Under the pieces are notes generated by a model, which worked only from the letters and a program-made list of their open reading frames with translations, ran no database searches and was not told the DNA's origin. 64,000 bases of DNA, taken from NCBI GenBank assembly GCA_000091205.1, contig AP006485.2; one strand, 5' to 3'. The stretch's first letter is position 1; the number at the start of each line of letters is the position of its first letter. This stretch comes from Cyanidioschyzon merolae (taxonomy: Eukaryota). Shown piece by piece: positions 1 to 35,290 of this stretch. The translations under genes and the position numbers were made by a program.

Positions 1-369
1 CCCCCCATTCCCCCCATTTACCTCCAACCCACGCACTTCACGCACTTCCCCATTAACGCGATGATCCCAGTGCCAATGCATATGTGATTATGACTTCTAT
101 CTCTCAAAATTCATTACTGATCCGTCTTCGGCGGTACGATCTGAGCGCGTACGCATCTGTTATATCTCCATCTGGCATTCCATGATCATTACTGTTTTAC
201 CTCCAGCTTTTTTGTTTTTGGTTTTGACAGAACCTCTACACTGCCCAGACGGCCGTGACCTCCGGATCGATAATCGTTTCAGGAAATCAACCGTTCCGCT
301 GAATAGTTTCTTCAGCTTCCGTTGTATTTACTTAATCTCGGCTTTATTGATCTAGTCAGGCTTTTTATT

Positions 370-775
370 CGGCGCCAATGCCTGCCGTAAGCACCCGCTC
401 TATCGTTTGTATCTCCGTTGCGGATATCCTCTGGTTACAGAGCAGCTTTTGCATACCACTGTGCTCGTTGGAAGTGGCTTGGTTCATACAACATGGAATG
501 ACAGAGATTTATTTTGTTGCGAGCCTCCAAGCTGTTGTTGCAGACCCTCTGCCTGTGGGAGTGCGAAGCGTTGTAGTACGTGTTTACTGCATCCAAGTTG
601 GGGCCCAGACGCAGCATAGCCCCTCCTAGTCCCAAAAAATTCGTTTCGGACGAGATGGAAAGGAGCGACACATCACCTGCCACTGAAGTTCTAGACGGGG
701 CACTATCTGGTAGAATCTCGCGGCTCGGAGACCTTCCGCCTAATAGATGACTGTTGGAGCAAACGTAAAAACCTC
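370..775 (+). repeat. Non-coding dispersed repeat, family 3 copy (partial)
   Basis: Shares blocks 'tgcctgccgt(a/g)agcacccgc', 'gctcctag(t/c)cccagaat' and 'ctcg..ggaccttccgcctaraaggta' with the copies at 22590-23150 and 34500-35030. Confidence 0.5.
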
Positions 776-1518
776 TTCCTATTGAAGTTTACTGTAGTTT
801 GCGATAGTGCTTGCTATCCCCTTTGTGGGTAATTTTTTTGCATTCTCTTCGTCGCGCACCTGTTAATGACTTATCCTGAAATTTGGCCGTCACATCACAC
901 CACGTGCTTCTCGCCGATCAAGAGAAACCTGCTAATGACCTCTTCTGGAGCGACTGTTTTATCCATCGCGGCCACTTTTATTTTGCGATCGGGTCGTAGC
1001 AAAATATAGTTTTGGCTTCAATGGCGTTTCAATCTTCAAGTAAATGTTCTCAGCTGATTTTCGCTGCTCAAAGTAGAGGTCTTCAATGAGTTTTTCTCCT
1101 AAAAAATTAGACTAATGTAATTGGGGGAGTGGGTTTGGGGTGGCCGGTATTGTGTATTTCAGAATGAAACGTGACTTAGTGCCGATCGAAGAGGATCAGG
1201 AAAAAAAGAAGATGCAACATGGGGAGGTCTTACATTGAAGGCTTCAATAGTGACGTCTGTACGACGAGATGGTGGTGGAATCCTATCTTTTCCTACATAT
1301 CAATGATCCTTACCACTCAATGTTGCGAGACGTTATCAGAAACAGTGTCGGTTCGTACGCCATGTATATTTTTAACTTTTCTTGAAGACTGCGGCGTTTG
1401 GAGAGCGAGCTGCATCGGGACGTGACGCACACCGCGAAGGTGATGTTTCCGGAAGATTTTTCACAATAGACTTACATCAACCACCTGATTGTTTTTAATG
1501 GGAAAACATCGGGGATAA

Positions 1519-1893
1519 ATGAGCGAGTGCATGCCTTCCTCAAAAATTACGCCAAATACCTCGTCAGCGATGCTGAACGAGGGGGTGACGCCGACATTTT
1601 TCGAATACAGGGCAATGAGGTGCCTTACGAAAGTGAGGAACCATAAGATCGTAAACCTCGATTGTTTCATGAAACGCGTCGTCTTTGCGCTGTACCCGGG
1701 CCCGTTTCGCAAAGGGATGCTGGCAATCATCGATTGCAAGAAGAGCGATCGCCAGCATGAACAGGAGATCAGAATCGTCGACAAGAGGACATCAAACAGG
1801 AGAAAGAATCTTGCTTTCGTTATCCGCGCCACTATTCTAAAACATCGTTCGGTCTTGGGTCATGTCATCCCAAGTGAAAACTGTCAGATATGA
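1519..1893 (+). pseudogene. ORF-A companion protein remnant (copy C)
   Basis: 'FMKRVVFALYPGPFRKGMLAIIDCKKSDRQHEQEIRIVDK' aligns with ORF-A of copy B ('FMIRAVFALYPGISRKGIWAMINGVTNDRKYEDEIEFVDK'). An upstream in-frame stop breaks the N-terminal part. The TGA stop overlaps the next ATG (ATGA at 1890). Confidence 0.55.
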
Positions 1894-3306
1894 TCAAAGA
1901 AGACGAAGAGAGAATTTACTCCCTCATCTTGCCACACCTCATTTTTTCGGACAGAGAACACGCACGCAAGGCCGACATGGAGCAGAGTGCAGAAAAAATG
2001 ACGGGTGGGAGTACCGACATTGAAGGCCTTCTCCAGATGCGATTCATTGTGGTTCAGTTATGCGAGTTCAATTCATATTCTGTGAATATCGACTCTAGAG
2101 TCCTTTACGCCTTCACGAAATAGATCGGTCCAGAGCTCGATGTAAACTACAAAGAGATCACCGGCGAAGACCGGGACACCCTGGTAGAATATCTTCGATT
2201 TCAAGCGTCCCAAACCGGCCAAAGAAAGGTACTCACGGGGGCCATCGATTACGATGTGGTATACATAAACCTACACTCTCAGGGGTTGAAGGCACGTCGT
2301 CCTATCCCGTCTTCGTTATCTCACTTGCCGAAGCGCGTACACAAGAAGACGGGCGATGGAACGTATAATGCCCACGAAATCGTCTTTCTCTGCGGCCTTA
2401 ACCCCTTGAATACGAATATCATCAGCATCGCTGCTCCCAGGCGTGCGGAAGGTGGTACTGACGGCAACATGCCTCAGAAAGACCTGTTTTTGTTGGTGTT
2501 CTCGAGAGCGAGATGGTATCGGGAATCCGGGAGATTGAGTGCGAGGATGGACATCGACCCGTGGAGTGCAACAGTTAAGGATAACCCGGAAACTTTGAGC
2601 GAGGTGACATGCCCAAGAGCGGACTCTCTAGTTTTTTGGATATTCAAAGAAGTTCGCGTTGCACACTGGGATGCGCTGTGCAAGGAATACTCAAAGCCAC
2701 GGTAGACTCGTTTGCAAATGAATCTACGCGGTGGGAGGCAGCATGCATTTGCGAATTTCTTCAATCAGTTGAGCGCCTTGAAGGAGAATGAACGTCAGTG
2801 GCTCGTATTAGCATACGGAGCATGGCGCTGGAAGACCCAAAAAGGGTGTACACCAGCTCCAACGACTAGGGTGTACAAGGGGTGCGCAAGGCGTTTCGTT
2901 ACGATACCTGTAGATGAGTTCCGAACATCGTATACACACCATGAACTGGGTTGTACACTTCAGAGAATGGAGATTGAAAAGTGCCAGTGGAGCCCTGAGG
3001 ATGTGAAAACTACGGACCGCTGACAGAAGAGCAAACGGAAAGGAAAGCGATAGTTCGAGGGCTACTTGCATAAGTACCACCAACGGCAAGAACCGGAAAG
3101 AGTTTTTGAACCGAGACTTTAACGCCGCTATCAATAAAAGTAGATGTGCGGTACTAGAGAAAAGTCCTCCAGAATGGACAAAAGAGAACTTTCTAAGAGA
3201 ACCTCTCAAAGTCGAACTATATGAGAAACAATTGGAAGCAGTAATAGGTGTCCGGTCCAAAAAGACTGGGAGGCGTCTGCACTTCAGTTGGAGACGTTTC
3301 GTCTAG
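1890..3306 (+). pseudogene. TnpB/Fanzor-like RuvC nuclease, frameshifted (copy C)
   Basis: Pieces 1890-2123, 2256-2705, 2712-3023 and 3106-3306 lie in three frames. They carry 'GLNPLNTNIISIAAPRRAEGGTDG' (RuvC-I), '[31 protein letters not shown]' (RuvC-II plus Zn finger) and 'MNRDFNAAINKSRCAVL' (RuvC-III). Confidence 0.65.
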
Positions 3307-4015
3307 GGCGGACCGGTCGCCGCTACTGCACTATGCCGACGTCGTTCCGCTTTAGAACGGCGTTTGGCTGTGGGTGCAACTTTTCGACGTCATGCTTTCC
3401 AGTGCAGAAGGAGTAAAATTGTGCCACTGTAATCCATTTCTGCTTCTCTGCCGTCTGCGCCAATTCTGGATCATGTATCACTGTGGATGATATTTTGCGT
3501 TTTGAGAAAGTGTGGTTTACTGCTAAGGTTCATCTCTTTCCATGAATCAGTTCCTGAATGCGTTTACGCCACAGCTCCAAGTGTCAAGCAACAGAGCTGA
3601 CCGCTAACATCCACGACTGCGGAAACGGTCTAGAGGAGTCGTTTGCGCCCTGGCACAATCAACCACATCTCCAAGCTTCAATGTACTTGACTCACGGATC
3701 GCGAATTCTCATGTGCCCTGCATGTGCTGCTATGATCATCAACCAATATATGCACAACCCAATCTTGTTCTCAGATTATTTTCTTCACCGGTTTTTTCGA
3801 ATGCGCTCATATATAGATCCGGCTTCGCATATTCAGGTGCAGGACTCATGCCGCCTCCGTGATCCACGTGCTTAGCAGTATGTTGTCGAAGGCTTTTACG
3901 CAGTGAACCATACATTATTACCATTGCTTTGATAAGAACCTCAGCAGGTAGGCCTCGCAGCTTATGTTGTATCCCATATGCTAGTTGCGCCTGTACTCTA
4001 CGTCAAACTGGATGC

Positions 4016-6433: not shown

Positions 6434-7249
6434 CGAACGATCGCAAGACTAGACGTTTTCAATGACTGCAGCCACGTGCGTTGCGCGCGCAACGTTGGAA
6501 ACGCACGTTGCGCAACGCATGCAGCCGGTTCTGATCTCGAGATGCATGCGAGCACTTGAACCTGAACTATGTGGACCAATATAGAATGTAATGGACATTT
6601 ATGCACATGGACCAATCATCCAAAAGTTTGTTTCGATCTGCTACTGGTGGGATCCTGTACTAAACGGTACACATGGGACACCAACCAAGATGCACTAAAG
6701 GCCTTGGACTTGAAATGGAACAATCATGTCCTATTATTGTGTAAAAACGAATACGATGCATCATAATGCCAAAGTTCGGTTCCAAAGAGTCGCAGCAGCA
6801 CGCCCCTTGGGGCAGCCTGCAGCTGCCCCGATGCGCGAGCGCAAATGCGCGCATTCCGGGCAGCGGCGGTGTTGGCAATACGAAACAGTGGCGACATTTG
6901 TGTAAAGAGCGTCGAGGCGCCATCGTGGCGTCGGACACGTGTGCTTCATCGATCTGAGTAGCGTCTCGCGCGGTGCGCGCATCGCGCTCGGTGAGCGTCC
7001 CTGGGAGGTCGGGTAGTCAACGGACGCGACGCACTTGTCGCCGTTGAAGGGAAATGTGATCCTCAGGATTCGTTGGCGTGTTGTTCTAACATAAAACTTG
7101 TATTTGTATTGCAATCGTAACAAAATATATGGTTTCATCTCAGTCATGTTGCAGCCCTCAAGTAAAAATACTGGAGTGTTTTTTTCGCAGTATACAACAG
7201 GAACCTTCAAAGAGGGTTCTTTCTCAAAAAAAAACTAAAAAGGAAAGCT

Positions 7250-8042
7250 ATGAAAAAGCAAGTCCACGATCCTGGAGGTCCAGGGTCGGCGGCTGCTAGA
7301 AAAAAAACAAAAGACGGTGCCGAGTTCATAAGAAAAGGAAGAGAAAAAGAAGCAAAAATGGGAGGCCCTACGTAGAAGGCGGCAAGAAAGACGACCGCAC
7401 TACGAGGTTGTGGTGAAAACCTGTCTTCTTGGACATATCAAGGATCCCTACATGGAAAAGTTGCGAGACATTATCGAAAAACGTGTCGGCTCGTACTCCA
7501 AGAGCATTGTCAATGCGTCGTCAGGACTAATGCATTTGGTGAGGGAGATGTACCACGAAGTTACGCACATGGAAACGGTCGAGGTACCCTGACGGGTTTT
7601 TCGATAAGACTTTACTCATCACCTGATGCTTGGTACAGAGGAAACGCGGAAGGAAAATGAGCTAGTAAATGCCTTCCGCGAGAAACATCCCTTTTACAGT
7701 TTCGAGGGTACTCGATACAAGGGTGAACGGGATATTTACACTTACGAAGCGATGAAGTATCTCACGAATCTGCAGAACCATTTGACAGCGGACCTCGAAC
7801 GTTTTATGATACGCGCCGTGTTTGCACTTTACCCGGGCATCTCTCGCAAGGGGATATGGGCGATTATCAATGGCATCACGAAAGATCGCAAGCGTGACAA
7901 TGAGGTCGAATTTGTCGACAAGAAGGCCTCACGCAGGAGCACAAATGAGGATTCCGTCATCCGTGCGGTTATACAAGCGCACCGGGCAATCTCGAGGCTG
8001 GCGAATCCAGCAGGCAAGATATCAGAGTTGAAAAAAAGATAA
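7250..8042 (+). pseudogene. ORF-A companion protein (copy A), frameshifted
   Basis: The conserved leader ATG at 7250 ('aaaggaaagctATGaaaaagcaagtccacgatcc') gives 'MKKQVHDPGGPGS...', a basic Lys-rich leader ending at TAG 7373. The body then lies in other frames (7410-7592, 7626-8042) with a +1 insertion relative to copy B. It retains 'YTYEAMKYLTNLQNHLTADLERFMIRAVFALYPGISRKGIWAIINGITKDRKRDNEVEFVDKK'. Confidence 0.55.
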
Positions 8043-8160
8043 AATGCTGTCGCCTCATTCTGCTCGATTTCGTATTTCTGGACCGAGAGCTCGAACGCAA
8101 AGCGGAGATGAAGCTGAGTGAGGAAAAAATGAAGAATGGGAGAGACGGAAGGCGTTCCTA

Positions 8161-9600
8161 ACGGGGAAGCGCTTCAACGGGGTTCCGTTGTGCAACATCA
8201 AGTCACATTTTGTGAGTACCGACTCCGGCGTCCTTTATGGCATCATGGTGGGGTTCAGTCCGGAGTTCAAAGTTAGCAGGGAGGACTTCACCGGCGAGAA
8301 CCGGGTGACGTACTGGAAGAGTATCTTCGATTTCAAACCTGTAAAAGTCAGCAAACAGAAGGTATTCACTGGGTTGATCGAAACCGATGGAGTAGCCTTG
8401 TGCGTACACTACCGGCGGTTGAAGAAAGATCGGCCAGTCCCTCCCTTGGCTGCGCCCGTGACGAAGGATGCAGAAAACAAAGAGGCGGATGCTGCGACGC
8501 ACAGAGTGCAGGATAACGACTTTATTGTTGACGCGGCGAAGGATGACGATGAAAAGGAGGCGGTTCCTGAGACGGAGGAGATGGAGGATGACGACTTTGC
8601 GGTTGGCGCGGTGAAGGATGAAGAAAAGAAGGAGGCGGTTCCTGCGATGCAGGAGGTGCAGGATAACGACCTTGTCATTGGCACGGTGAAGGATGAAGAA
8701 AAGAAGGAGGCGGATCTTGAGACGCAGAAAGTGCAGGATAACGACTTTGTCGTTGGCGCGGACCCTGGAAATACGAATATCATCACCATCGCAGCACCGA
8801 AGCGTGCTGAAGATGGCACTGACGGTAACTTACGTCAGAAAGACATGCGTCTTTTAAGATTCTCGAGAGCGAGATACTACCGGGAATCAGGAACCATGAA
8901 TGCAAGGAAGAGAATCGAAACATGGAATGCCGGAAGAAAGGATCTCCTGGAAGCCTTGAGCGAGGTGACTAACCGAGGAGCGGACTTTGAAGCTTTTCGG
9001 AAACTCATGAAAGTTCGCGTTGCTCATTGGGATGCGCTGTGGGAGAAGTATACCAAGCCTCGGTGGGCTCGTCTGCGTATGAATCTATACGGTGGGAAGC
9101 AGCGGGCGTTTGCCAACTTTTTCAATCAGTTGAGTGCCCTCAAATAGGACAAGACTCAAAGGCTCGTAGTAGCAAATGGGGCAGGGCGATGGAAGACCCA
9201 AAAAGGCTGTACACCAGCTCCAACGACGCGAACGTACAAAGAGTGCGCAAGGCGTTTCGTTACGATACCTGTAGATGAGTTCCGAACATCGTATACACAC
9301 CACGAGCTGGGTTGTACACTTCAGAGAGTGGAGATGGAAAAGTGCTAGAGGAGCCCTGAAGATATAGTAAAGTATGGACCTCTGACGGAGGAACAAACGA
9401 AAAGGATGCGAAAGTTCGGGGACTACTTGCATCAGCATGTACAACCAGTGATGGCAAGAAACGTATGGAGTTTGTGAACCGAGACTTTCATGCCGCTATC
9501 AATGTCAGGAGATGTGCGGTGCTGCAGACGAGAACTCCAGAGCTGACACGAGAGAACTTTGTTGGACAACCTCTCAAAGACGAACTATATGAGAAAAATG
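8161..9600 (+). pseudogene. TnpB/Fanzor-like RuvC nuclease (copy A), disrupted
   Basis: Homologous to 16784-18025. The start codon is ACG, there is an in-frame TAG at about 9143, and there are more stops downstream. An internal ~84-nt tandem expansion is listed separately below. Confidence 0.7.
8455..8750 (+). repeat. Roughly 84-nt in-frame tandem repeat (about 3.5 units) inside the copy A nuclease ORF
   Basis: The repeating protein unit is 'KDEEKKEA(V/D)...[12 protein letters not shown]', and copy B has a single unit. The array ends at the RuvC-I motif 'GADPGNTN'. Confidence 0.7.
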
Positions 9601-9730
9601 GGAAGCAGTAGTAGGCAGCCGGCCGAAAAAAAAAGCCGGGAGGCGTCTGCATGTCAGTTGGACACTTTTCATGTGGGCGCCGGTCGCACTGCAGTAAACG
9701 CCCGACGTCGTTCGAGTTAGAACGGCGTTT
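9600..9730 (+). ncRNA. Conserved non-coding 3' tail of family 1 element (candidate omega-RNA / right-end region)
   Basis: 'gggaggcgtctgca..tcagttgga.ac.ttt...gggcg.ccggtcgc..ctgca.ta.cgcccgacgtcgttc.gtt.agaacggcgttt' is conserved between copies A and C and, more diverged, copy B, while the flanks are unrelated. Confidence 0.35.
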
Positions 9731-10700
9731 TGGAGCAGTCTGCAGAGCATCTGGTACTTTTTGCTTTGCCTTTATCGATATATGGATAAGGCTGTGGTTA
9801 CGATTCTTCTAGTACGGTCTTCTGACAGCCCGGGTCATTTCACTGCCTATTTTTTTCCAGGCACACCTTTTCATCTGCAGTGCGTCGACCGAATAGCCGT
9901 GAGAAGTTTACCCTCTTGGCCCTATAACTTTCTGACTTCATGCTTTCCACAGCACGAGCGCTAGAATTGTGCGATTCTAAAGCACTTCTGTCTTTCTGCC
10001 GCCTGGTGCTATTCTTGATCGTATTTCACTCAGAACAGCCTTTTTGGTTTTTGGAGAAATTCTGTTTCAAAGGTTTATCTGATATCTTCGCAACTGTCAA
10101 CTCCGTAATGCTTTCACAATACTACTCCAAGTGACACGCAACGAGGAGAAGCACGAATTTTTGTATCTGAAAGTAGACTCCATCGGAACGCCCCGCAAAC
10201 CTCTAGCCAGCATACTATTTCGATGCATAGATGCATGCGAAGCTCTGCTCACTCAGTCTCATGTGACCGACATCTGCTGCTATTCCTCTTCGCAAGTCTT
10301 GGCGCTACCGTACTTCTCTGTATATAAAACTGTATTCCGCGGCTTGCCTCGATTGCGCACAATAATAACTGTATGCAACTTTGCTCGTTCGTATAAGTTG
10401 CTATGGTTGTGCCCCTTATCAAAATCCCTGACAAAACGCAGTGCGAACCTTTTTCGAAATGTAACTCGTATGATCATCATCGCTTGATCATTATCCTAAG
10501 ACAGAAAAAGCGGAACCTAGAGTAGTACCATCGGTGCTGTTCGCCCCCGTGCTTCAGAGCAGATTGCCAGTTCAGCAAGCTGCAACTACAACACTTACGT
10601 AAGCCTCCGTTAAAACACGTGCTGCACTCGTCCAGTTATGATATAGCCTTTCTGCGTACTGCATGATACCCATAATACCCTCTGTGCCGAGCCCTGGTCC

Positions 10701-13334: not shown

Positions 13335-15206
13335 TTACACTGTGGAGAAGGCGCTCGCAGACGTCGACACAGAAGCTGAAACTGAAGCACTCGCGGATAC
13401 ACTCACAGAAGCTGTCGCAGAGGCCGTCGCAGAGACTGTTGCAGACACCGTCGCAGAGGGTGTCGCTGTCACAGCCACGGGACTCGGAGTCGGTGTTGGA
13501 CTAATGACCACACATTGGTTGTTGATGCACTCCTCGTCAGCGCGGCAGCAACGAACCTTGTTCACAAGGTTATCCGAAGGGATCAGGTACGTCCCGCACT
13601 GCTTCGTAGGGTCCTTGCACACACAGAACGACGGCAGCAGCACCTGTTGTTGCTGCTGTTGTTGCAATTGCTGCTGCTGCTGCTGGTTGTTGTTGTTGCT
13701 GAACGGGTTGTACGTGCAGTTCTGCGTCTCGGCGTTGCAGCACTCCGGGCCACACGGAATATAGCTCGAGTTCGATACGTTGCCGGTCGTGCCGCTCAGC
13801 GAGTTCGACACATACCCGTAGGTCTGGCACACGTACTCGGTCATCGGCTGGAAGCACTCGTTGCTGAGCCCCAGGCAGCAACCAGCCTCCAGACACTGCT
13901 GCGGCGAGTAGCTCGTGCGCTGCGTCCCGTGCTGCTCCCCGTACAGAAGCGTGTTCAGCAGACGCACAAACTGGTTATTGTTGATGTTATTGTTCAGCTG
14001 CTGGTTCTGATTCACCGCGTTCGTGCACGGCTGGCGCTCAAACTCGCCCACCGCGCACGTCTTCACGGGCTGGAAGCAGTACGGGTTCGACTCAAAGTCG
14101 CTCTGCTGCTTGCCGTTCTGCACCCACTGGTTCTGCGCCTGCGAGTCGTAGCAGCAGCCCTGGGCATAGCACGTAAACTGGTTGATGCCCGCGTTGCCGC
14201 ACGGCTGGCGCTGCGCTCCCGGTGACGGGCAGAGGGGAACCGGTGCCTGCACCTCCTGCAGCGCTACAGAGGCCTGCGGTGCATGGTTGATGTCGTAGTA
14301 GCACCAGGGTGCCAGGATGCCGTTCGCTGTGGGCTGCCAGCAGCATCCCGGTATCGCAGTGCACTCGTCGGGGTAGATATAGCTCCAGCCGCAGGGGACG
14401 CGCTGTGTCACTGGAACAGCGCTGCAGGCCGCTGAGACGCTCTTCAGGGTGCACGCGTTCGTCTGGGCGTTGAAGCAGCATCCGACTTGCTCGCAAGCGT
14501 CCTGGTTTGTGTACTGGCCCGGAGAACCGCAGATTTCACTCGTGCAAACTGGTGTTGGCGTTGCACTCGGTGTCGGGGTTATAATAGCAAGTGTCGCACC
14601 AGAGGGTAGAATTGTAGAAAGCAGGTCGGTGAAAGTTTGAAGCACAATTTGCAGTTCACTGGCGAGGGATGTGTCTCCTGAGATCTTAATCACATAGGTC
14701 ACAACACTGCCGCCCGAAGTGCGCACCAATGCTCGTTCCAGACGAGGATTGCTCTTGTCTAATGTGGTGGCGAGGCGCCTTGATGTACCCGAACCGAAGA
14801 CCGTGTCGCAGTTATCAGTCACGCTAACATTCACTTCCAGGCCTATGAAGCGAGCCTCGAGATCGTTCTGCAAATCCGTCGCCACGGCCAAACAAAGAGA
14901 AAGATTCTGAACGGATATCGCAATCGAGGTGGAAATCGTCGTCGGCACGATTGTTGGTGACGTTGTTGTAGTCGGTGTCATCGTAGGCGTCGGCGTCGGT
15001 GTCATCGTCGGCGTCGGTGTCATCGTCGCTGACACCGATGGAGCCACCGAACTTGTTGGTGACAATGTTGCAGTCGCTGTCATTGTCGATTGTGCTTCGG
15101 CCCCTAGCGTGGCACACCCAACAGCAAGCGACAGAGCTGCGACCAAGACGAACAACTGTTTACACAGTTCGCCGAAGTTGCGATATTTTCCTGCTCCTGG
15201 TCTCAT
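13335..15206 (-). CDS. Secreted multi-trefoil (P-domain) glycoprotein with TP/ST-rich, poly-Q and poly-N regions
   Basis: There is a signal peptide 'MRPGAGKYRNFGELCKQLFVLVAALSLAVGC' (ATG at 15206). Trefoil signatures include 'RVPCGWSYIYPDECTAIPGCCWQPTANGILAPWCYY' and 'RQPCGNAGINQFTCYAQGCCYDS...NPYCFQ', with two more degenerate units and (TP)n/(ST)n linkers. Confidence 0.7.
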   Translation of the reverse strand: MRPGAGKYRNFGELCKQLFVLVAALSLAVGCATLGAEAQSTMTATATLSPTSSVAPSVSATMTPTPTMTPTPTPTMTPTTTTSPTIVPTTISTSIAISVQNLSLCLAVATDLQNDLEARFIGLEVNVSVTDNCDTVFGSGTSRRLATTLDKSNPRLERALVRTSGGSVVTYVIKISGDTSLASELQIVLQTFTDLLSTILPSGATLAIITPTPSATPTPVCTSEICGSPGQYTNQDACEQVGCCFNAQTNACTLKSVSAACSAVPVTQRVPCGWSYIYPDECTAIPGCCWQPTANGILAPWCYYDINHAPQASVALQEVQAPVPLCPSPGAQRQPCGNAGINQFTCYAQGCCYDSQAQNQWVQNGKQQSDFESNPYCFQPVKTCAVGEFERQPCTNAVNQNQQLNNNINNNQFVRLLNTLLYGEQHGTQRTSYSPQQCLEAGCCLGLSNECFQPMTEYVCQTYGYVSNSLSGTTGNVSNSSYIPCGPECCNAETQNCTYNPFSNNNNQQQQQQLQQQQQQQVLLPSFCVCKDPTKQCGTYLIPSDNLVNKVRCCRADEECINNQCVVISPTPTPSPVAVTATPSATVSATVSATASATASVSVSASASVSASVSTSASAFSTV

Positions 15207-15877
15207 GCTTCTAGAGCTAAGAACTTCTTGTCGACACTAGGTTTTTGTGAATACTTATTTCTTACAGCTGCACCGGTTGCTGAGATGTTTTGTCGCACCG
15301 CGAGTTTCGCTATCTCTCTGGCTACGAAACAGCCCAGTCGGCTACCGAGCGCTGTGTGAAGAACACCAACGCAGCGGCGATAGCGCCTGTGAAAAAATTT
15401 AAAACGCGCAACATGCCTCGAAGCCGCGGCAATCGATGATCACGGCGAAGGAGAAACGGTTCGAGACGATCCCTGCAGGCGCGGTTTCGATTTCGCGTTT
15501 CGCGCCAAAAGCGATTGCGCAGACGTGTCCCCGAGCGAGCTCTGGTTTGCTTCATTATCGGCGTGGGGCACGTGTCCTTCATCGATCGGCGTAGTGTCCC
15601 GCGAGGCGCACGCATCGCGGTCAGTGAGCGCACCTCGGAGATCGAGCAGTCAACTGACGCGACGCGCATGGCTCCGTTGAAGGGAAACGCGGTTGGGATC
15701 AATAGCATGTTGTTCTACCGGAAAAAGTTGGATTTCCGTTCAGGTCGTAGCCAAGTACAGTCTTTCAGTTCGTTTCTGTTTGAAACTTCAAACAAGTCTA
15801 GTCAAGTGTTTTTCGTGGTTTATAGTAGACGCGTTCGTACCGCGTTCGTTCGCAAAAAAAACAAAAAAAGGAAAGCT

Positions 15878-16545
15878 ATGGAAAAGCAAGTCCACGATCC
15901 TGGAGGCCCAGGGTCGCCGGCTGCCAGAAAAAATACAAAAAACAGTGCCGAGTCCAGAAGAAAAGGAAGAGAAAAAGAGGCAAAAGGGGGAGGCCCTACG
16001 TTGAAGGCGGCAAGAAAGACGACTGTACGACGAGAAGGTGGTGAAACCCTTTCTTCTTGGACATATCCGTATGGGAAAAGTTGCGAGACGCTATCAAAAA
16101 ACGTGTCGACTCGTACTCCATGAGTATTGTCAAGACGTCGTCAGCACTGATGCATTTGGTGAGGGAGATGTATCGCGACGTGACGCACATGGAAACGGTC
16201 GAGACTCCGGACGGGTTTTTCGATAAGACATTTATTCGTCACCTGATGCTTGGCACAGGGGAAGCGCGGAGGGAAATTGAGCTAATGCATGCCCTCCACG
16301 AAAACTTCGCAGAATTCCGCTTCGAGGGTACCCCATTCAGGGGTGACCCGGATATTTACACATATGGGGCGATGAAGTACCTCACGAACCTGAAGAACCA
16401 TTTGACAATGAACCTCGAACTTTTCATGATACGCGCCGTGTTTGCACTCTACCCAGGCATCTCTCGGAAAGGAATATGGGCGATGATCAACGGCGTCACG
16501 AACGATCGAAAGTATGAAGATGAGATCGAATTTGTCGACAAGTAG
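15878..16545 (+). CDS. ORF-A companion protein of family 1 element (copy B); leader and body are in different frames and the C-terminus is truncated by a TAG
   Basis: Leader ATG at 15878 gives 'MEKQVHDPGGPGSPAARKNTKNSAESRRKGREKEAKGGG...' in frame 2 up to 16123. The main conserved frame 16057-16545 reads 'EKLRDAIKKRVDSYSMSIVKTSSALMHLVREMYRDVTHMETVE...YTYGAMKYLTNLKNHLTMNLELFMIRAVFALYPGISRKGIWAMINGVTNDRKYEDEIEFVDK*'. Copy A has AAG where copy B has the TAG stop. Confidence 0.55.
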
Positions 16546-16783
16546 GTGCCAAACGAGAGCACGAATGAAGCCTCTGTAATCCGTGCGGTTATACGAGAGC
16601 ACCGTGCAGTCTTGGGGCTGGCGAATCCAACAGACAATATCAGAGTTGAAAAAAGATAAGGAAAGATACTATCGCCTCGTCCTGCGGTATTTTGTGTTTC
16701 TGGACCGAGAGCTCGAACGCGAAGCGGAGATGAAGCTGAGTGAAGAGACAAATGATGAGTAGGAGATACGGACGGCTTTCCTA

Positions 16784-18025
16784 ATGGGTAAGCGCTTTAA
16801 CGTGGTTCCAATGTCCAATATCAAGTCACATTTTGTGACCATCGACTCCGCGGTCTTTTACGGCATCATGAAAGAGATCAGTCTGGAGTTCAGTGTCAGC
16901 AGGGAGGACTTCACCGGCGAAAACCGGGAGACGTACTGGAAGAGTATCTTCGATTTCAAACGCCTCAGAGTAAGCAAACAAAGGGTATTTACTGGGTTGA
17001 TCGAAACCGATGGAGTATCCTTGTGTATAGACTATCGGCGGTTGAAGAAAGATCGTCCAGTTCCGCCCTCGGCTGCGCCCGTGCCGAAGCATGAAGATGA
17101 GAAGGAGGCGGATCTTGAGACGCAGAAAGTGCAGGATAACGACTTTGTCGTTGGCGCGGACCCTGGAAATACGAATATCATCACCATCGCAGCACCGAAG
17201 CGTGCTGAAGATGGCACTGACGGTAACTTACGTCAGAAAGACATGCGTCTTTTAAGATTCTCGAGAGCGAGATACTACCGGGAATCAGGAACCATGAATG
17301 CAAGGAAGAGAATCGAAACAGGGAATGCCGGAAGAAAGGATCTCCTGGAAGCCTTGAGCGAGGTGACTAACCGAGGAGCGGACTTTGAAGCTTTTCGGAA
17401 ACTCATGAAAGTTCGCGTTGCTCATTGGGATGCGCTGTGGGAGAAGTATACCAAGCCTCGGTGGGCTCGTCTGCGTATGAATCTATACGGTGGGAAGCAG
17501 CGTGCGTTCGTCAACTTTTTCAATCAGTTGAGCGCCCTCAAGGAGAATGAAAATCAGAGGCTCGTAGTAGCAAATGGGGCAGGGCAATGGAAGACCCAAA
17601 AAGGATGTACACCAGCTCCAACGACGCGAACGTACAAAGAGTGCGCAAGGCGTTTCGTTACGATACCTGTAGATGAGTTCCGAACATCTTATACACACCA
17701 CGAGCTGGGGTGCACACTTCAGAGAGTGGAGATGGAAAAGTGCCAGAGGAGCCCTGAGGAAACAGCAAAGTACGGACCGCTGACGGACGAGCAAATGGAA
17801 AGGAGGGCGCAAGTGCGGGGATTGCTTGCATTAGTACGTACAATCAATGGCAAGAAACATATGGAGCTTGTGAACAGAGACTTTACCGCCGCCATCAATA
17901 TAAGGAAATGTGCGGTGCTGGAGGAAAGACCTCCAGAGTCGACACGAGAGAACTTTGTTGGACAACCTCTCAAAGTCGAACTATATGAAACAAAGTTGGA
18001 AGCAGTAGTACATGGCCCGCCGTGA
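16784..18025 (+). CDS. TnpB/Fanzor-family RNA-guided-type RuvC nuclease (413 aa, intact ORF)
   Basis: ATG at 16784. Motifs are RuvC-I '[21 protein letters not shown]', RuvC-II '[31 protein letters not shown]' (the E, then H/H/C/C residues in place of a C4 Zn finger) and RuvC-III '[20 protein letters not shown]'. The size and motif order match TnpB/Fanzor2-like proteins. Confidence 0.8.
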
Positions 18026-18125
18026 AATGCTAGGAGACGTACGCACATCGTCGAAAACGCTTCGTCCAGGGCGCGTCACTCGCTACTTCTGTACAACGCT
18101 GGCGTCGCTCGACTCTAGGTTTGCA
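18026..18125 (+). ncRNA. Family 1 3' tail (copy B), candidate omega-RNA region
   Basis: 'gctaggagacgtacgca...gggcgcgtcactcgctacttctgtacaacgctggcgtcgctcgactctag' aligns with the tails of copies A and C. Confidence 0.3.
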
Positions 18126-18424
18126 GTGCGCAACTGTGGTAAACGTTCTTGCGGGTTGCCTCTAGCTAGTGAAGACTTGAAATGTCAGGCCCAAGTCTTT
18201 ACAAGCTTGTAGCAAGACGCTTCTTGAGCAAGAGCACTGCGGGTTCTTCCACTGGGGCTGCAGACAGGCCGTTCTACGGCGGCCTGCGCGGGTTCCTGGA
18301 GCGGCTGAGGCGGGGCCGCATCTTCCGGGCCGACCTCGAACCGGAAAACTGGAGAGAGCCTTGGCGAGAGTCGCGTTTTCGTTATCCTTCTCCGGGGTAA
18401 GTTAGAATATGGTGCACTGAAGTG

Positions 18425-21878: not shown

Positions 21879-22067
21879 AGCTCAACACTGGACCGCTCTC
21901 GTTGCACGACCGGTCCCTGAAACAAGGCGTTCTCTGCCACAAGTTGATAAAAAGCCTTGCCCTAGGCGCCTCAAAAAGCTTTTACGGACCGCAGACTAGG
22001 TAGCGACGCAGCGCCTGTGATCCACAATCGATCGCACTGTTGCGCTTTTCTTTACCGTTAGACAAAT

Positions 22068-22570
22068 CGATTCCATAGACCAGGGATTCCATAGACCAGG
22101 GATTCCATAGACCAGGGATTCCATAGACCAGGGATTCCATAGACCAGGGATTCCATAGACCAGGGATTCCATAGACCAGGGATTCCATAGACCAGGGATT
22201 CCATAGACCAGGGATTCCATAGACCAGGGATTCCATAGACCAGGGATTCCATAGACCAGGGATTCCATAGACCAGGGATTCCATAGACCAGGGATTCCAT
22301 AGACCAGGGATTCCATAGACCAGGGATTCCATAGACCAGGGATTCCATAGACCAGGGATTCCATAGACCAGGGATTCCATAGACCAGGGATTCCATAGAC
22401 CAGGGATTCCATAGACCAGGGATTCCATAGACCAGGGATTCCATAGACCAGGGATTCCATAGACCAGGGATTCCATAGACCAGGGATTCCATAGACCAGG
22501 GATTCCATAGACCAGGGATTCCATAGACCAGGGATTCCATAGACCAGGGATTCCATAGACCAGGGATTCC
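22068..22570. repeat. Perfect 16-bp tandem repeat (ccatagaccagggatt)n, about 31 copies
   Basis: Seen directly. The 16-nt period keeps all three frames open, which explains the overlapping 'GIPGLWNPWSMESLVY' ORFs on the minus strand. Confidence 0.95.
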
Positions 22571-22589
22571 AAATTGCGGGACAGATAGT

Positions 22590-23150
22590 GGCATTCGGGA
22601 TGGCGTTCATCAAGTTGCACTGTACGTCCAAGTTCCATGAACGATACGTCCTCTCGGATGTACTGGTCGTTTCATGTATTCCATCGTCCTCCGAATGCCT
22701 ACCCAGAGCACCCGCCATAGCACCCACACCGCCGGTGCGGATACCGCACAGAGAGAGAACGGCGTTGCCGTACCACCGGGAGCGTCGGCTCGACGCATCA
22801 TTCATTCAACAGGGAATTCGGGACCCTTTATTATTCTGGGAGCTGGCAAACTGTGCAGGACTACCTACTACCGGCTGCAGCGCGAAGCGATGTACTAGGA
22901 GACCACCACGCCCAGAGCGATGCCCAGACGCCGCCCAACCGCTCCTAGCCCCAGAATATACTGTGTTGTGGGCGAGCTTTTCAGGTCTCATGACAGCATC
23001 CGGCACTGCGGAGTCGGACGGAGCACAAAACCGACAGAATCGTCCGGCTCGCGAGACCTCCCGCCTAAAAGGTACACGTTCGATTACGCGGGAACCGTTT
23101 CCACATATCAACGCTTACCTTGCAGAAGAAAAGAAGCGGTTACCTAGGTG
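22590..23150 (+). repeat. Non-coding dispersed repeat, family 3 copy
   Basis: Collinear with 34500-35030 ('cctctcggatgtactggtcgtttc', 'gagcacccgcc', 'acggcgttgccgtaccaccgggagcgtcggctcgacgc', 'ttattctgggagctg', 'cgtccggctcgcgagacctcccgcctaaaaggta'). Confidence 0.65.
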
Positions 23151-25685
23151 CTAGCTTGTACTTCATTTCTTTCCATGTTGCTTCCATGGCGCGCTCGTGT
23201 GCGCCTTTGCGCGTTCATGGGAGGCGCTGATCAGGCTGTGCATTGAACTGGACGCTTCCGCTTTCGGCGGTCGCACTGCTGCCTGATCATGCCGCGTTTA
23301 CACTACGAGGTGTCTGTATTCTCACAAGCAATCGGTGAAATGCAATATGAAGGCTGAATTTTGATGCTAGTGGTAGCGCTCATCGATCACTTTGGAGTGA
23401 GGTGCAGCAACTGCTACAGAATCGATAACAATGTAACGCATCGCAGACCGTCGAGAGCCATCGCACGGACTCGAACATACAGGTCCGGCAAATGCAGTGC
23501 CGGGACGTGTGTCTCAGAGGCGCTTCAGCATCGGCGGAATGCCCATAGAACCGTACTCGAGGTGAAATTACACGCAATTCTGACGCTGTATGCGACGCAC
23601 GCTTCTCTTCGCTATGCTCGAGACACCTGTCCTGCATTGTACGAGTCTAGTCGGGACTAGTTTAAGGACAGATGCCGTTTTCTGCTATACGGGTGTATGC
23701 GGGAGATGCCCGCCCGCAGACAACGCCTGCTATCGCCTGTGTTGTGCTCAGTCTGCTGGGAGAACCACCTGAACAGATTTTGCACAGCAGCAGGTTAAAA
23801 TACCGGTTTCAGGTGTGTTCGCTGGACTTCAGGTACACTTGCGGATCCGAGTTCCACATGCCTGCATTAGAAGCTGGAAAGATGCCGATTATTCCTGATT
23901 TGGGTCGCCCGTGTCTGTGAAGTACTGTTCCCCGCGTTCCGCAGTACCTGCTCTTCCTAGGATTTTGCGATCAGGTGAACAAGCCATGAATGCACTCCTA
24001 GGACGCGGACCCGGTTTTACCGTCAGTGCGTTCAAGTGGACGCATCTCCGCGTGCCAAGTCCGTCTAAAGTCTGAGGCGGTGCGCAAGCAGCAGCATACT
24101 TGCACAGCCGTTTCGGATGCGTGTTTTGGGTGCGAGCGCGGGACGCTCGAACACGCCTTCAGGGTCGAATGACGCCGTCCTGTGGGAGCTCTTCAGTGAT
24201 GCTTTCGGGACCACAAAGCCATGACAGCTTTGAAACCTCGACTAGATCTGGCGGATCCGAAATGCATGGACACCAGTGCACGGGGAACTCTGATTTCTGG
24301 TTCATGCGCCCGAAACGCAACGTCATATTCGTATCACATTGGCGGTGGGCGACCTGCTTTTCCGGAAAGCAGCCTCATTCCTAATTCACCCTTGCTTTGA
24401 GGTATACTTATAAGGGTTGCACGTCGCTCAGCGAAGCGAGGCCGAGTCCGAGTCCGGAAGTCGTCGCTGAGCGCTGATGCACTTCCCTGGTGTATGGAGC
24501 TACCCCCGATGGTGCAGGAACGCTCGATTTGCACATCGACCACAAGCTAACGACATTATTGTACTTTCGGAGCGATTCCAGCTCGCTAAGCTCTATCATA
24601 CGCAAGCAACCTGCAATGGCAGATTGTCTCTTTAGAAACCGGGGTAGCACAACGGTGCTGCGCACGGCGACTTCGATCCAAGAGTGGATGTCGCGCTACG
24701 AATTCCCAACAGTGCTTTCGGGATCACTTTTGAATGGGTGCTGCGCTCACAGCACGCCTGTCCTGTACAGGCACCATATGCAACCTATTCGAGCCGTGTG
24801 AGGCATGCCCTTGGGCGCTACGTATTCCAGCCTCTATACCGCACACACCGGATTCTATAGTCTATCACAAGCGCTGCGCTAGCTGCGTCACTCCAAACGC
24901 TCCTGGAATGACGCTGACATTCCGCGAGGATTCCGTTAGCGCGAAACTGGTCCGACTGGACGCAAATCCGGTTCCATGCTTCACGAGTTCGACGTTCCAT
25001 CGATAGCTCTTTTGTGCCCCGCACAGCCAGCTGTCATGCGGACACACAGTGCGCGGGCATGTGCAGTCACAGGTCTATCAGCAGGTTGGACGCGCTGTGT
25101 TCCCATTTTCCGGACGTGCAGCGACAGCGCTGGCAGCCCAGCAACGCGTAGTAAACGCTCTGCTCTCGCGGAGGCCGCTCTTCGCGGCGAATGCCCGAGA
25201 GCCCCGCTCTGTGCACTAAAATCAAGGAAACGAGAAGCAGTTGCGCACTGTGTGAATCATAAAGTTTAGGTTCCTCTATACATCAAGTGCACATCTCGCG
25301 GAGCCTTCGCGGAGTCAAAAGACATCTTGGGATCTGCTAGAAAATCCCATTGGGGTCCCGGCACCGGCGTATCGCAGATACCATTCGCTTGGCGGGATGA
25401 TGCAGTGCGACCCGGCATGAACGCGGCAATGGCCACCTATCACATATCAACACGCTTGCAACCGTGCCTTCTAGAAGGCTTGGGCCTCGGTGCCTGCAAA
25501 ACAGCCCCAGACCCCGAGACCTGCTCGGAAGCGATTCGAAAGAACTTCCGATCCCGAAACTGCAGCTGCAACATATTTTCTCGCCGTACCTGAGGCCCAG
25601 GCTTGATCCCCGCTTACTTCATCGAAAAGCTGTGCATCCAGTTGGTCCCAGTAAGCGAATCGTCACCCTCAGAAACCAGGTGCCG

Positions 25686-26210
25686 CTACTCAACTCGGTG
25701 CCGCTCGACGACCTCGCGAATCTTCGAATCATCTGCCCAGGTTATCAGGTCCTCCATACTCCGCGTAACCAACAAGTTTGGATCTCGTACCACATGCGGC
25801 CCAATCCGTATGTGGCCCCTCTTGATAAGCGCAACCGCATCCGACAGGCGTTCCACAAAGTGATTGCGAACGAGCACCGAGGGCAACCGCCGCCGACACA
25901 ACGCCGATACCGTCACGTTCGCACACACATCCAACCCAGATTTTACGTTAATCAGCCCGAGATCATATAACTCGTTCAGTAGCTTCTCAGTGCGGTCTAT
26001 TCGAAACGGATTGTTCACCTCAAGCGCCTTCAGCTTCGACACCAGCGCGGTTACCTTTCCCACGAACTGGTTGTAGGTATGGTACACCTCAGGGCTCGGC
26101 AGATAGTAACGACGTACAACCCGATACTCTCGGTGATGATTCTCTCGCTTCCATTCGTAAAGGTTATCCTTCTTCAGAAGCTTGTATTCATGATAGCGCA
26201 GCTTTCGCAT
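25686..26210 (-). CDS. IMP3: U3 snoRNP protein IMP3 (ribosomal S4/S9 N-terminal plus S4 domain)
   Basis: 'MRKLRYHEYKLLKK...RRLPSVLVRNHFVERLSDAVALIKRGHIRIGPHVVRDPNLLVTRSMEDLITWADDSKI' aligns along its full length with eukaryotic IMP3. ATG at 26210. Confidence 0.9.
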   Translation of the reverse strand: MRKLRYHEYKLLKKDNLYEWKRENHHREYRVVRRYYLPSPEVYHTYNQFVGKVTALVSKLKALEVNNPFRIDRTEKLLNELYDLGLINVKSGLDVCANVTVSALCRRRLPSVLVRNHFVERLSDAVALIKRGHIRIGPHVVRDPNLLVTRSMEDLITWADDSKIREVVERHRVE

Positions 26211-29809: not shown

Positions 29810-30750
29810 TTTGAAGGCAAGCCGTGGATGCAGTAATCCGTGCCGCTGAATTAAAGAGGAAAGCAACTCGAGATTGCCGTATGGCAACTTGTTCACAAGC
29901 TTGTGCTAAAAGGTCATTGAGCGTGTCACGTCGAATAATTGATGTCATTCGAAAGAGAAACACTTCTCTCTCTGGTCATCAACGAAGCGGTATTCTACAG
30001 CAGCCGCAGCAGCAGAATACCTGTCCCGGTATGTGATTCCAGAGGGTCTCGTCTCTTCCTTTTGCGTAGTACAGGGTCCTGGACTTGAGTCATCGAAGCG
30101 ATCGCTTCCAGTGAAGCGCGCGTCAGCGATTTGCACGGAGGAAGCGTAGACGGATCCGAATAGTTTGACTTGTTCTCCAGCATGGATATTCCGTCCAGTA
30201 CTTGTTTCATCATGGACACCATCGCTTTCCACCTTTGCTCTTTCTGATGGAACAGCGAGCGTTTACGCGTGCAGCAGTGAGGGTGCTCATTGAGGGAATC
30301 GCCCGGACGGAGCCCGTTATCTTAGGGCACGGAACCGCGCCCGGAAACTTAAGAGGACATCCAGCGAGGCCCTCTCTACGCAACACGGGCTAGTTCAGAG
30401 CCGTGTTGGAAGCGTTCGCGAGCCACAGGGCAGCGTTCGAAGGAGGAGGTGCAGTGGACATATGGGGGCACCTGACCCCAAACATGCCTCACCGCTGCAA
30501 GCGGCGCATCGGGGATGGATGGATGCAAAGCGGATGAAAATGGCAAGCCAAGCGTAGATCGCAACTTCCGTCTATGCATGATTTGCGTCGACTACAGTCA
30601 GATGCAGCGGCATCAGTACTTGAGCGCTACCATGAACATCCTTCGACTACGGACGACGGGGCTGGTGCGGCAGGAGAGACCAGCGTATTTAAAGCCGATA
30701 ACAAGAGCGAGGCAAATGACGTAGTCGCAGGCATCGCCCGCAGGGGCTGT
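29810..30750 (+). mobile_element. TnpB-derived short element, family 2, copy 1
   Basis: About 0.9 kb, collinear with 33195-34090. It ends in a TnpB-like C-terminus 'DRNFRLCMICVDYSQMQRHQYLSATMNILRLRTTGL' (30515-30724). Confidence 0.55.
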
Positions 30751-32145: not shown

Positions 32146-32569
32146 CGGCAGTCACCTGGTGATGCAGCACAAGCACTGCTGCTGAACCTGGGAAGCACTC
32201 TGTGGATGAGTTCTTCACGCGCGCACGCGCGCCCATAGTCTTTCAACTCAGTTGCATGATACCCGTAGGTGCGTAGAATAGAATGCTTTTTCGTGGTTTG
32301 TAGCAGCTGCCTTCGAATGCGTTCAATTCCAAAAATAGAAAATAGAAGGAAAACGTATGAATTTGGGAGTTGGGCATCCTAGAGGGCCGTCGCGGCCAGG
32401 TTCTACGAAGAAACGAAAGAATCCTCTTCTCACCGGCTATCGAGCGATGAGGACGAAGATAAAGAAGGCGGGAGATAGGAGTGAGAAAAGGAGTTTGCCC
32501 GACGAGACGATGTGGAGACACTGGTGACTCTGAGGGCACGAGTTCTAGGAATCCTTGCTATGGTGCATT

Positions 32570-32800
32570 CAACCAGTATCAGTGCACGCATGGAGTTCGT
32601 GAACCGAGACTTTAAAGCCGCCATCAATATCAGACGATATGTAGTGCTGTAGACGAGACCCGTGGAGCTGAAGCGATCCAACTTTGTGGGGAAGCCTCTC
32701 CGGCTCGCAGTGCGCGCGGAAAAGCTGAAGCCGATAGCAGGCGGCAGGTCACAAAAGGCTGAGAGGCGTCTGTGGCTGGATGCATGTATATACATACGCT
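32570..32800 (+). mobile_element. Family 1 (Fanzor-type) 3' fragment: RuvC-III end plus tail
   Basis: 'MEFVNRDFKAAINIRRYVVL*' is followed by '...ggctgagaggcgtctg', which matches the 3' ends of copies A, B and C. Confidence 0.6.
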
Positions 32801-33194: not shown

Positions 33195-34090
33195 CTCTGT
33201 TAACCAACCACAAAAGCATGGCGGCGACGATTAGAGCTGCTCGACTGACACATGAAAAAATCTCGATGTCATTCCCTGAAGACTTGTTCACAAGCTCAAG
33301 CCGAGATTTTACTGAACTTGTCAGGCCAAATAATCGGTTCATTTCGAAAGAGAAATTGTGCTGTCTTTATAGTCATCGACGGAATGGGATTCCAAACCAG
33401 CTGGATGCCTCGGAAGCAATGTATCTTCAGCGACTGCCGTCTTCTCTGTCCGAATCGAAAACGGGTCTTGGACTCCGACATGAGCCATCGCAGCGATTGT
33501 TTTCCGGGAAGCGTGCGTCAGTGATTTGCACGAAGAGAGCGTAGACGGCTCCGCATTTTTGACTTGGTCTCCAGTCTGGATATTCCCTTCCAATACTTGC
33601 TGCATCATGGTCAACATCGCGATCAGCGTACCCGCTAGCTCATGGAACAGCGTAGACGTGCGCGTGCATCGAGCAGCGTCCTCGCCGAAGGCATCGCCAT
33701 CAGGGACCTCTTGGTCGTAGTGTAAGATGCCGGACTCGGAAAATCGGAGTAGTGTATCGAGGGTATGCATTTGTACCCGCCATGCGCATGTATCGCTCGA
33801 TGAAGCCAGCGCTCCAGCGCCACAGCACATCCGTCGCAGCAGAGGACAGTTTCGCGAAGCAAGAAGAAAACCCGGCCACACTCAAGTGTCACTGCTGTGA
33901 CAGATGCTCCAGCGCTGTTTGCCCAGAAGATGAAGATCTGAATCGATTCATAGATCGCAACGTTCGCCTATGCCAAGAAAGCATCGACAACAACGGAAAG
34001 CAGCGACATCGGGACTTGAACGCTACAATCAACATCCGTCCACTGCTGACAATGAAACTGGTGTAAAAGAAGAAACCGCCGTATCCATAG
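33195..34090 (+). mobile_element. TnpB-derived short element, family 2, copy 2
   Basis: Collinear with 29810-30750 (for example 'gcgtcag(c/t)gatttgcacg.ag.agcgtagacgg', 'ttgacttg.tctccag..tggatattcc'). The C-terminal ORF 33752-34066 reads 'LKCHCCDRCSSAVCPEDEDLNRFIDRNVRLCQESIDNNGKQRHRDLNATINIRPLL' (Zn-finger-like plus RuvC-III-like). Confidence 0.6.
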
Positions 34091-34499
34091 CCGGAGGTTA
34101 GAGAGCTGTGAACGAAGCAAGCACAGAAATGCCCACGTATATGCCGCTGAACAAGAAAATGCATCGAAGACCAATCGTTTCAGTCTTCTCCGGACTTGGG
34201 CCTGCCCATATGTCCCTTTTGATGCTAACGTGCGCATCGTGTGCCGATACCCGTACAGAGCGCTTCACACGTCACAAATTCCGCACCTGCACGCTGCATA
34301 GAGCATCCTGGCGTGCTTCACTTGGACAGTACTTGTACGAATCTGGAGCAAACCAGTCATCTGTGGAGGTGCTGCCTACGCTTCAGAACACACACGCCAC
34401 AGCCTTGCACAAACGTTTCAGCACGGGCGTTTTGTCCAATCGATTTTTTTCGATGCGAAAACCTTTACGTTGACCATAGATTCCAGATTGCGTGATAGA

Positions 34500-35030
34500 T
34501 AATGGATTTCGGGAAAGCGTCCATATTGAAGCACCTACCTTCAGGTTCCGTTACCCATACTTCCTCTCGGATATACTGGTCGTCTCGCACGTTCTGTCGT
34601 GCGACGACTGCCTGCCGTGAGCACCCGCCGTTGCGCTTCTATACACCGCTGAAGCAGATGTTGCACGGATACAGAACGGCATTGCCATTCCACTGAGGGC
34701 GTCGGCTCGAGGCGTAATTCATCCGACACGACGTCGGAGTACAGAATTATTCTGGGAGCCTGCGACAGCGCAAACCGATCTACCAGGCGTCCACTGCAAC
34801 CAGGGCGACGCCAAGACGCAGCATACGCGCTCCTAGTCCCAGAATGAATTGCGTTGCAGACGATCCGCTCAGTTTTCAGTACAGCACCTGCCACTTGGGG
34901 GAGCAGGAAGCACTAGCCAGCCCCGCAGACTCGTCCGGCTCGCGGGACCTTCCGCCTAGAAGGTAAGCTTTCGAAAATACGGAAACTTTTCCCCTTTTCA
35001 ACGCTTCCTATCAAGGTCAAACAGCACTGT
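34500..35030 (+). repeat. Non-coding dispersed repeat, family 3 copy
   Basis: See 22590-23150; same orientation. Confidence 0.65.
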
Positions 35031-35290
35031 TATCGAGTTGCTAGTTAGTGGTCAGTTTCGGTTCTCTCAGTTCGGAGACTTGGTCGAATCGATGCACCGT
35101 CAGCGCGCGCCTTCGTCGAGGCGCCGATCGCGTGTACGCGGCAGCAGCGCAGGGGCCGGCACGCTGAAGGCACCTCCGCTGTGCTGGTGGCAACGCGCAG
35201 GCCTCGTGTGCGACACGAAAGCATACGCAGCCGAGTGGCACAAACTCGCCGTGCTGTCGTGTTTATCACCAGTTTGCACTCTGGTCGTGA

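Follow-up and report, generated by a model that had tools for sequence, protein, structure and literature searches.

Introduction

The genome of Cyanidioschyzon merolae contains very few introns and very few transposons. Its Fanzor1 element, CMe-1A, was described by Bao and Jurka in 2013 (Mobile DNA 4:12; PMC3627910) as a sequence of ∼3 kb that is present in ∼150 copies with ∼80% identity to the consensus, lacks terminal inverted repeats (TIRs), and has target site duplications (TSDs) that could not be determined. [quoted passage not shown] TE-N2_CMe is therefore a known family, described in 2013 (Repbase and the founding Fanzor paper). A Fanzor1 is also present in WSSV (Bao and Jurka 2013; PMC3627910). 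Nozaki et al. (2007) described a “WSV repeat” in the same genome, with 253 copies, a mean length of 3.2 kb, and an ORF weakly similar to WSV486 of WSSV. The length of this repeat equals that of TE-N2_CMe plus the Fanzor1 core of CMe-1A (0.64 + 2.5 kb), and we infer that the WSV repeat is CMe-1A from size, copy number, and the WSSV link rather than from a comparison of coordinates.

The MCi-2 Fanzor1 family of Mucor circinelloides has a similar organization: different 5′ regions are joined to a 3′ body that bears the Fanzor gene, TIRs are absent, and no class has been assigned. However, MCi-2 copies are 99% identical and have TSDs of 11 to 12 bp, whereas the C. merolae copies are old and no TSDs were seen.

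This study concerns a 64,000-nt stretch of C. merolae DNA (the window) in which a noncoding dispersed repeat with three copies had been predicted from the sequence and interpreted as a SINE- or miniature inverted-repeat (MITE)-like nonautonomous element or as a family of structured noncoding RNA (ncRNA) genes. The broad idea of a nonautonomous, dispersed, noncoding element was right, while none of the three proposed classes is supported. Comparison with the published consensus indicates that the copies are very probably TE-N2_CMe, a 635-bp noncoding nonautonomous repeat that is equivalent to the 5′ module of the ∼3.2-kb Fanzor1 carrier CMe-1A.

Genomic setting

The window begins with two units of CCCCCCATT, which is the C. 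merolae telomere repeat AATGGGGGG in reverse complement, and five of its long ORFs are identical to C. merolae 10D entries (BAM78958, BAM78960, BAM78966, BAM78967, and BAM78971). The telomere repeat, together with the matches to chromosome 3 proteins, places the window at the left subtelomere of C. merolae 10D chromosome 3.

Several other features of the window were noted. Subtelomeric paralogues at 4016-6433, 10572-11305, and 13335-15206, comprising Kelch plus Hint (hedgehog-type intein) and trefoil-domain proteins with DTDA-type acidic repeats, agree with the “H” subtelomeric element published for chromosome ends 3L and 16R. A separate dispersed repeat family, with 66 to 80% identity between copies, is found at 29887-30707 and 33282-34093 and, inverted, at 62690-63021 and 53365-53522; one of its copies lies ∼370 bp upstream of the third repeat copy described below (copy C). 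A stretch of ∼2.5 kb at 23174-25685, bounded on one side by copy B and on the other by a ribosomal protein S4/S9-type gene (25686-26210, minus strand) with an apparent upstream exon, has no ORF longer than 103 aa and matches neither repeat profile, which is unusual in so compact a genome. Degenerate Fanzor1 core sequence was considered as its origin and rejected, as a search with the core profile gave no match in this stretch.

Identity and extent of the three copies

The predicted presence of three copies in the same orientation was confirmed. In a self-comparison of the window by blastn, 22558-23116 matched 34472-35006 with 67.7% identity over 566 nt (E = 3e−51), and alignment of the three copies (A, B, and C) with MAFFT gave a mean column identity of 72 to 75%. 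The conserved blocks quoted in the original prediction are confined to these three sites within the window, while shuffled sequences are expected to give 0.00 to 0.34 matches. The components of the three copies are as follows.

213..848, plus strand: copy A, the TE-N2-like 5′ module of a full-length CMe-1A (nhmmer match, 213-797; consensus positions 4-629)
22042..22068, plus strand: extreme 5′ end of copy B, separated from the remainder by a satellite (nhmmer match, 22042-22095)
22069..22571, plus strand: 16-nt satellite with 31.4 units of GATTCCATAGACCAGG, 100% identical (TRF and flank comparison)
22565..23173, plus strand: main body of copy B, probable solo TE-N2_CMe with 77% identity to the consensus (blastn, consensus 15-613 to 22551-23154)
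34438..35065, plus strand: copy C, probable complete solo TE-N2_CMe with 79 to 85% identity to consensus positions 1-634/640

The extents first assigned to the copies (370-775, 22590-23150, and 34500-35030) were too short, the units being ∼620 to 650 bp long with sharp ends. When the satellite was collapsed, homology between copies B and C started at 22064 and 34458 and stopped at 23159 and 35049, respectively, and copy A aligned over 231-769. A profile built from nine copies and searched with nhmmer extended the matches to 213-797 (A), 22042-22095 plus 22547-23173 (B), and 34438-35064 (C).

The published 3,169-bp CMe-1A consensus (PMC3627910, Additional file 2) was used as the reference for blastn searches of the window. 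Consensus positions 1-634 matched 34451-35065 (copy C; 79% identity, E = 3e−162), positions 15-613 matched 22551-23154 (copy B; 77%, E = 5e−129), and positions 108-3128 matched 329-3327 in a single continuous alignment (73%) that contains both copy A and the adjoining Fanzor1 core. All 12 copies identified in this study (see below) are 67 to 85% identical to consensus positions 1-640, and copy A is the most decayed (67.5%). Copy C and its closest paralogue, D, end at consensus positions 634-640, where their flanks diverge, and this is the point at which the Fanzor core starts in CMe-1A. The assignment to TE-N2_CMe is made through the CMe-1A consensus and the identity stated by Bao and Jurka, rather than through the TE-N2_CMe sequence in Repbase. 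The copies nevertheless share with TE-N2_CMe the host organism, a length of ∼635 bp, the sequence of the CMe-1A 5′ end, the absence of TIRs and of coding capacity, a copy number in the tens, and ∼80% identity to the consensus. As one difference from the published consensus, the copies suggest that homology starts ∼15 to 20 nt upstream of position 1, taking in a run of T residues and a motif resembling ATCGA.

Copy A and the adjoining core together form one full-length CMe-1A at ∼213-3398, 212 bp from the telomere repeat, in which copy A is the 5′ module, while copies B and C are solo units that lack the 2.5-kb Fanzor core. One copy had been placed directly downstream of a “family 2” element, the name given to what is here termed the Fanzor core. 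The reverse arrangement was found: copy A is directly upstream of, and continuous with, a core, and copy C is ∼1.7 kb downstream of a short deleted core derivative (32235-32772). The possibility that the copies are parts of larger duplicated blocks without defined termini is contradicted by copies B and C, whose ends are defined and whose flanks are unrelated. It holds in part for copy A, which forms the initial 0.64 kb of a 3.2-kb element.

A satellite within copy B

The 16-nt satellite had been thought to adjoin one of the copies. It lies within copy B, because homology between copies B and C resumes upstream of the array. The satellite unit is the element's own “ACCATGGATCCCAGAT” region (approximately consensus positions 23-38), tandemly expanded, and we propose that replication slippage would have generated the array from this 16-nt piece of copy B. 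In contigs of a related strain (L011 and L012) the array has just 2.5 units, including a variant unit, indicating that its length varies between strains. Most metagenome contigs break at the satellite; those around the ECH gene end there and are uninformative with respect to copy B.

Copy number, age, and mobility

A degenerate-pattern scan of JGI metagenome contigs yielded 18 loci from hot-spring Cyanidioschyzon populations. These included orthologues of copies A, B, and C in environmental strains, with 97 to 99% identity, and the further paralogues D, E (with a partial tandem duplicate), F (the same as J), G, H, and I. Three more copies (K, L, and M) were found beside Fanzor core elements that had been retrieved through their ORF, bringing the total to 12 distinct copies, in addition to fragments, from ∼0.5 Mb of related contigs. 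No match was found when viral contigs were scanned with two block patterns.

Paralogues are 54 to 74% identical, with the exception of C and D (89%), and the combination of diverged paralogues with near-identical orthologues indicates that the family is ancient, fixed, and decaying. Flanking sequences are unrelated between different copies. Homology between C and D begins at 34442 and ends at 35059, which are the ends of the unit, so the duplication took in the unit alone, as one discrete segment. Taken together, these results describe a dispersed family of discrete units that is old and fixed across strains. This pattern of copies suggests that the unit has been mobile; a recent insertion, an empty site, or a TSD was not found for any copy.

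In one ENA contig (L011:16342-17100), compared with 34438-35065, the sequence matches copy C as far as the very 3′ end of the element and beyond it enters another locus, with a peptide-chain release-factor gene; its last ∼200 nt resemble paralogue D. Either two copies have recombined ectopically or the repeat has given rise to a chimeric assembly.

Coding potential and RNA structure

The statement that the copies contain no ORF is not literally correct, as a 188-aa open frame with a GTG start (22588-23154) spans copy B. The frame is unconserved, however, and other copies have stops in every frame, so that the noncoding character of the repeat stands. It could be argued that a family of intron-containing, protein-coding genes on the minus strand gave rise to the copies, as decayed fragments or exons: stretches of that strand resemble a membrane helix (ILGLGA.MLRLG) bordered by AG/GT dinucleotides, and several substitutions within them look synonymous. 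Against this, mismatches between copies have no codon-phase preference in any aligned block, column conservation has no period-3 signal, each of the six frames of every copy contains 1 to 15 stops, and only ∼26 C. merolae genes have introns. A spliced minus-strand gene model was consequently rejected, and we attach virtually no probability to a coding origin.

The mosaic of strongly conserved blocks is less marked than the three copies suggest. In the eight-copy subset used for these tests (the nine-copy alignment with copy D left out), rate heterogeneity between columns was real (chi-square test, P = 2e−13), and the spatial clustering of conserved columns was modest (autocorrelation, 0.10 to 0.15; best 20-nt window, P = 0.03). 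The mosaic pattern seen in three copies is mostly the appearance of ∼30% divergence, and, with conservation imperfectly uniform, parts of some copies may be under constraint.

A structured ncRNA was also considered. TnpB and Fanzor nucleases have been known since 2021 to 2023 to use RNAs encoded at transposon ends, and the unit, which is physically linked to Fanzor cores, has a strong hairpin in its consensus and an internal inverted motif (ATTCTGGG...CCCAGAAT), such that the copies could be genes for a guide (omega) RNA of the Fanzor nuclease or for another dispersed ncRNA family. Several lines of evidence make this very unlikely. First, Rfam searches of the window at gathering thresholds and of copy C at an E value of ≤1 were negative, as was a search for tRNAs in the window. 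Second, RNAalifold, run on 3, 9, and 12 copies, produced weak consensus folds (approximately −28 kcal/mol for ∼650 nt with the 9 and 12 diverged copies) in which many pairs were broken among copies, and the covariation terms were unfavorable on both strands at ∼70% identity (plus strand, +4.8 and, with nine copies, +3.0; minus strand, +2.2 with 12 copies). Third, changes in the central motif are mostly uncompensated; ATTCTGGG/CCCAGAAT was rejected as a stem on the basis of uncompensated changes in copies E, H, and J. Fourth, the hairpin has decayed in most copies. Fifth, known TnpB and Fanzor guide RNAs are located at the 3′ end of the gene, whereas the unit is 0.9 kb upstream.

Class of the element

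The repeat is neither a SINE nor a MITE, as it lacks TIRs, TSDs, pol III boxes, and a tail and has only its 5′ end in common with CMe-1A. A search for pol III A and B boxes gave only three scattered matches, each with one mismatch and all in individual copies on the minus strand. The 3′ end of the unit (...GTTAGTTTC) has no poly(A) or simple-repeat tail, and a T-run occurs solely before the 5′ end. The longest words common to both flanks of a copy did not exceed those of random 30-mers, with the exception of a 7-mer that did not abut the ends, and TIRs were absent from the six copies examined for them. A deletion derivative retaining both ends of the Fanzor core element was also considered and rejected; the unit corresponds to the CMe-1A 5′ end alone, and the 3′ ends are unrelated.

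A strong hairpin at consensus positions 556-592 (z = −3.7), near the 3′ end, is lost in most copies. Helitrons have 5′-TC and CTRR-3′ ends, carry a 3′ hairpin 10 to 20 nt from the end, and insert between A and T. The hairpin in the consensus is ∼45 nt from the end, a conserved CTAG lies ∼20 nt inside the end with homology continuing beyond it, and the 5′ end is not TC. More generally, the unit resembles HUH-type elements (IS200/IS605, Helitrons, and Replitrons) in the absence of TIRs and TSDs, a subterminal 3′ hairpin, and an association with TnpB/Fanzor; it differs from them in having no Rep or TnpA gene and in ends that are not of the Helitron 5′-TC/CTRR-3′ type. The resemblance is one of a possible mode of action and not of membership. 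Replitron proteins have not been detected in red algae, and a search of the later literature found no reclassification of the element, e.g., as a Replitron.

The Fanzor core and its association with TE-N2_CMe

Four core sequences, one of them internally deleted, are present in the window.

844..3398, plus strand: Fanzor1 core attached to copy A, with a degenerate ORF (core profile and CMe-1A match)
6985..9752, plus strand: Fanzor1 core without a TE-N2 module (core profile; consensus 687-3103)
15616..18149, plus strand: Fanzor1 core without a TE-N2 module (consensus 648-3145), with a 413-aa ORF at 16784-18025
32235..32772, plus strand: internally deleted core derivative 1.7 kb upstream of copy C, in which profile positions 159-374 and 2201-2445 are juxtaposed

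By sequence comparison, the core is assigned to Fanzor1, a eukaryotic TnpB-like protein. The core DNA is 82 to 88% identical to the CMe-1A consensus, and the ORF at 16784-18025 has 192 homologous clusters (90% identity) in environmental data. Their alignment contains the TnpB-like RuvC motifs GADPG (DPG), VDEFRTS (DEFxTS), and NRDFNAAIN (NRDxNAAxN), and the ORF profile matched that of another published Fanzor1 in hhalign (E = 3e−4 over 214 columns). Scans of the ORF against Pfam and profile and sequence searches of the PDB gave no match, and an AlphaFold (AF2) model was too poor for use (pLDDT, 37). In the Fanzor ORF, 75-nt tandem repeats (8463-8761 in the window and L040:10426-10651) encode an acidic linker (..KDEEKKEA..) with 1 to 4 units per copy.

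The architecture of the deleted derivative recurs in three environmental contigs (L035:5373-5918, L032:11432-12022, and L038). In the deleted derivatives, ∼280 nt remain from the 5′ part of the core and ∼250 nt from its 3′ part; these derivatives look like a nonautonomous subfamily that has kept both core ends.

The unit is frequently adjacent to a core, in more than one arrangement. In five of the 12 copies (A, G, H, K, and L), its 3′ end abuts the 5′ end of a core in tandem; one of these five also abuts a second core head to head, and one further copy is associated with a core in the head-to-head arrangement only. In the two head-to-head cases (L041:1743-7438 and L046:3966-7143) the unit is inverted, with its 5′ end 11 nt from the 5′ end of the core, and in L041 one and the same unit is flanked on both sides by divergent cores. 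The sequences of these two junctions are identical, which suggests an inverted-module subfamily. Other cores have no unit (those at 6985 and 15616 in the window and those in L043/L045 and L047), and in every arrangement all cores start at TAGCG (approximately consensus position 645).

The inverted arrangement and the fixed TAGCG start suggest that TE-N2 and the core are separable modules that have been joined more than once. A simple model in which the module is the fixed 5′ end of one element does not predict its inversion relative to the core. The divergence rank of the module agrees with that of the attached core (A being the most diverged, followed by H), consistent with insertion of the composites as one piece.

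The 0.64-kb unit might instead belong to the Fanzor gene as its promoter or 5′ leader, perhaps acting in both directions, rather than being an independent mobile element, in which case solo copies would be leftovers of cores lost by deletion or recombination. The unit is directly 5′ of a core in five cases, with the Fanzor ATG at CMe-1A consensus position 906, and its position between two divergent cores in L041 is in keeping with such a role; in addition, the repeats have been reported as transcribed, and one repeat cluster has H3K27me3 over a 0.5-kb upstream region. We nevertheless regard this reading as unlikely. Solo copies B, C, D, and E share the same 3′ end position and then continue into unrelated DNA, which random deletion would not yield, and the C/D duplication is exactly the unit. 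Furthermore, ∼70 solo copies were counted by Bao and Jurka (2013; PMC3627910), and cores without the unit start at one fixed point.

The tandem and head-to-head junctions, the unit common to two divergent cores, and the uniform TAGCG boundary could also be read as signs that TE-N2 is more than a dead nonautonomous repeat: a separable cis-acting module, serving as a recognition end, an origin-like end, or a bidirectional promoter, that is needed by a transposase-less Fanzor core and has been acquired repeatedly in either orientation. This is a speculative proposal, to which we give little credence at present.

Proposed mode of mobilization

For the preferred reading, a discrete nonautonomous unit, we propose the following. 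The unit would once have moved as DNA, mobilized in trans by other machinery; no HUH-type transposase is present in the element. A mode that leaves neither TIRs nor TSDs is likely, e.g., a single-strand HUH-type route, and the ancestral strong subterminal hairpin near the 3′ end could have been the recognition site. Its strength in the consensus and its decay in most copies fit a site that was once used for mobilization and was then free to decay. After insertion, the copies would mostly have decayed neutrally.

Implications

As the family has been catalogued since 2013 and its bulk was noticed as the WSV repeat in 2004 to 2007, the discovery value of the present analysis is small. It is useful for annotation: much of the ORF-poor “noncoding” DNA in this subtelomeric window of a compact genome is the debris of decayed Fanzor elements. 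If TE-N2 were a cis-acting module required by the core, it would provide a handle on how a transposase-less Fanzor1 spread to ∼150 to 250 copies in a genome with almost no other transposons. Fanzors are RNA-guided nucleases, and this status lends current relevance to the movement of TE-N2 and the core without a recognizable transposase and to their frequent adjacency.
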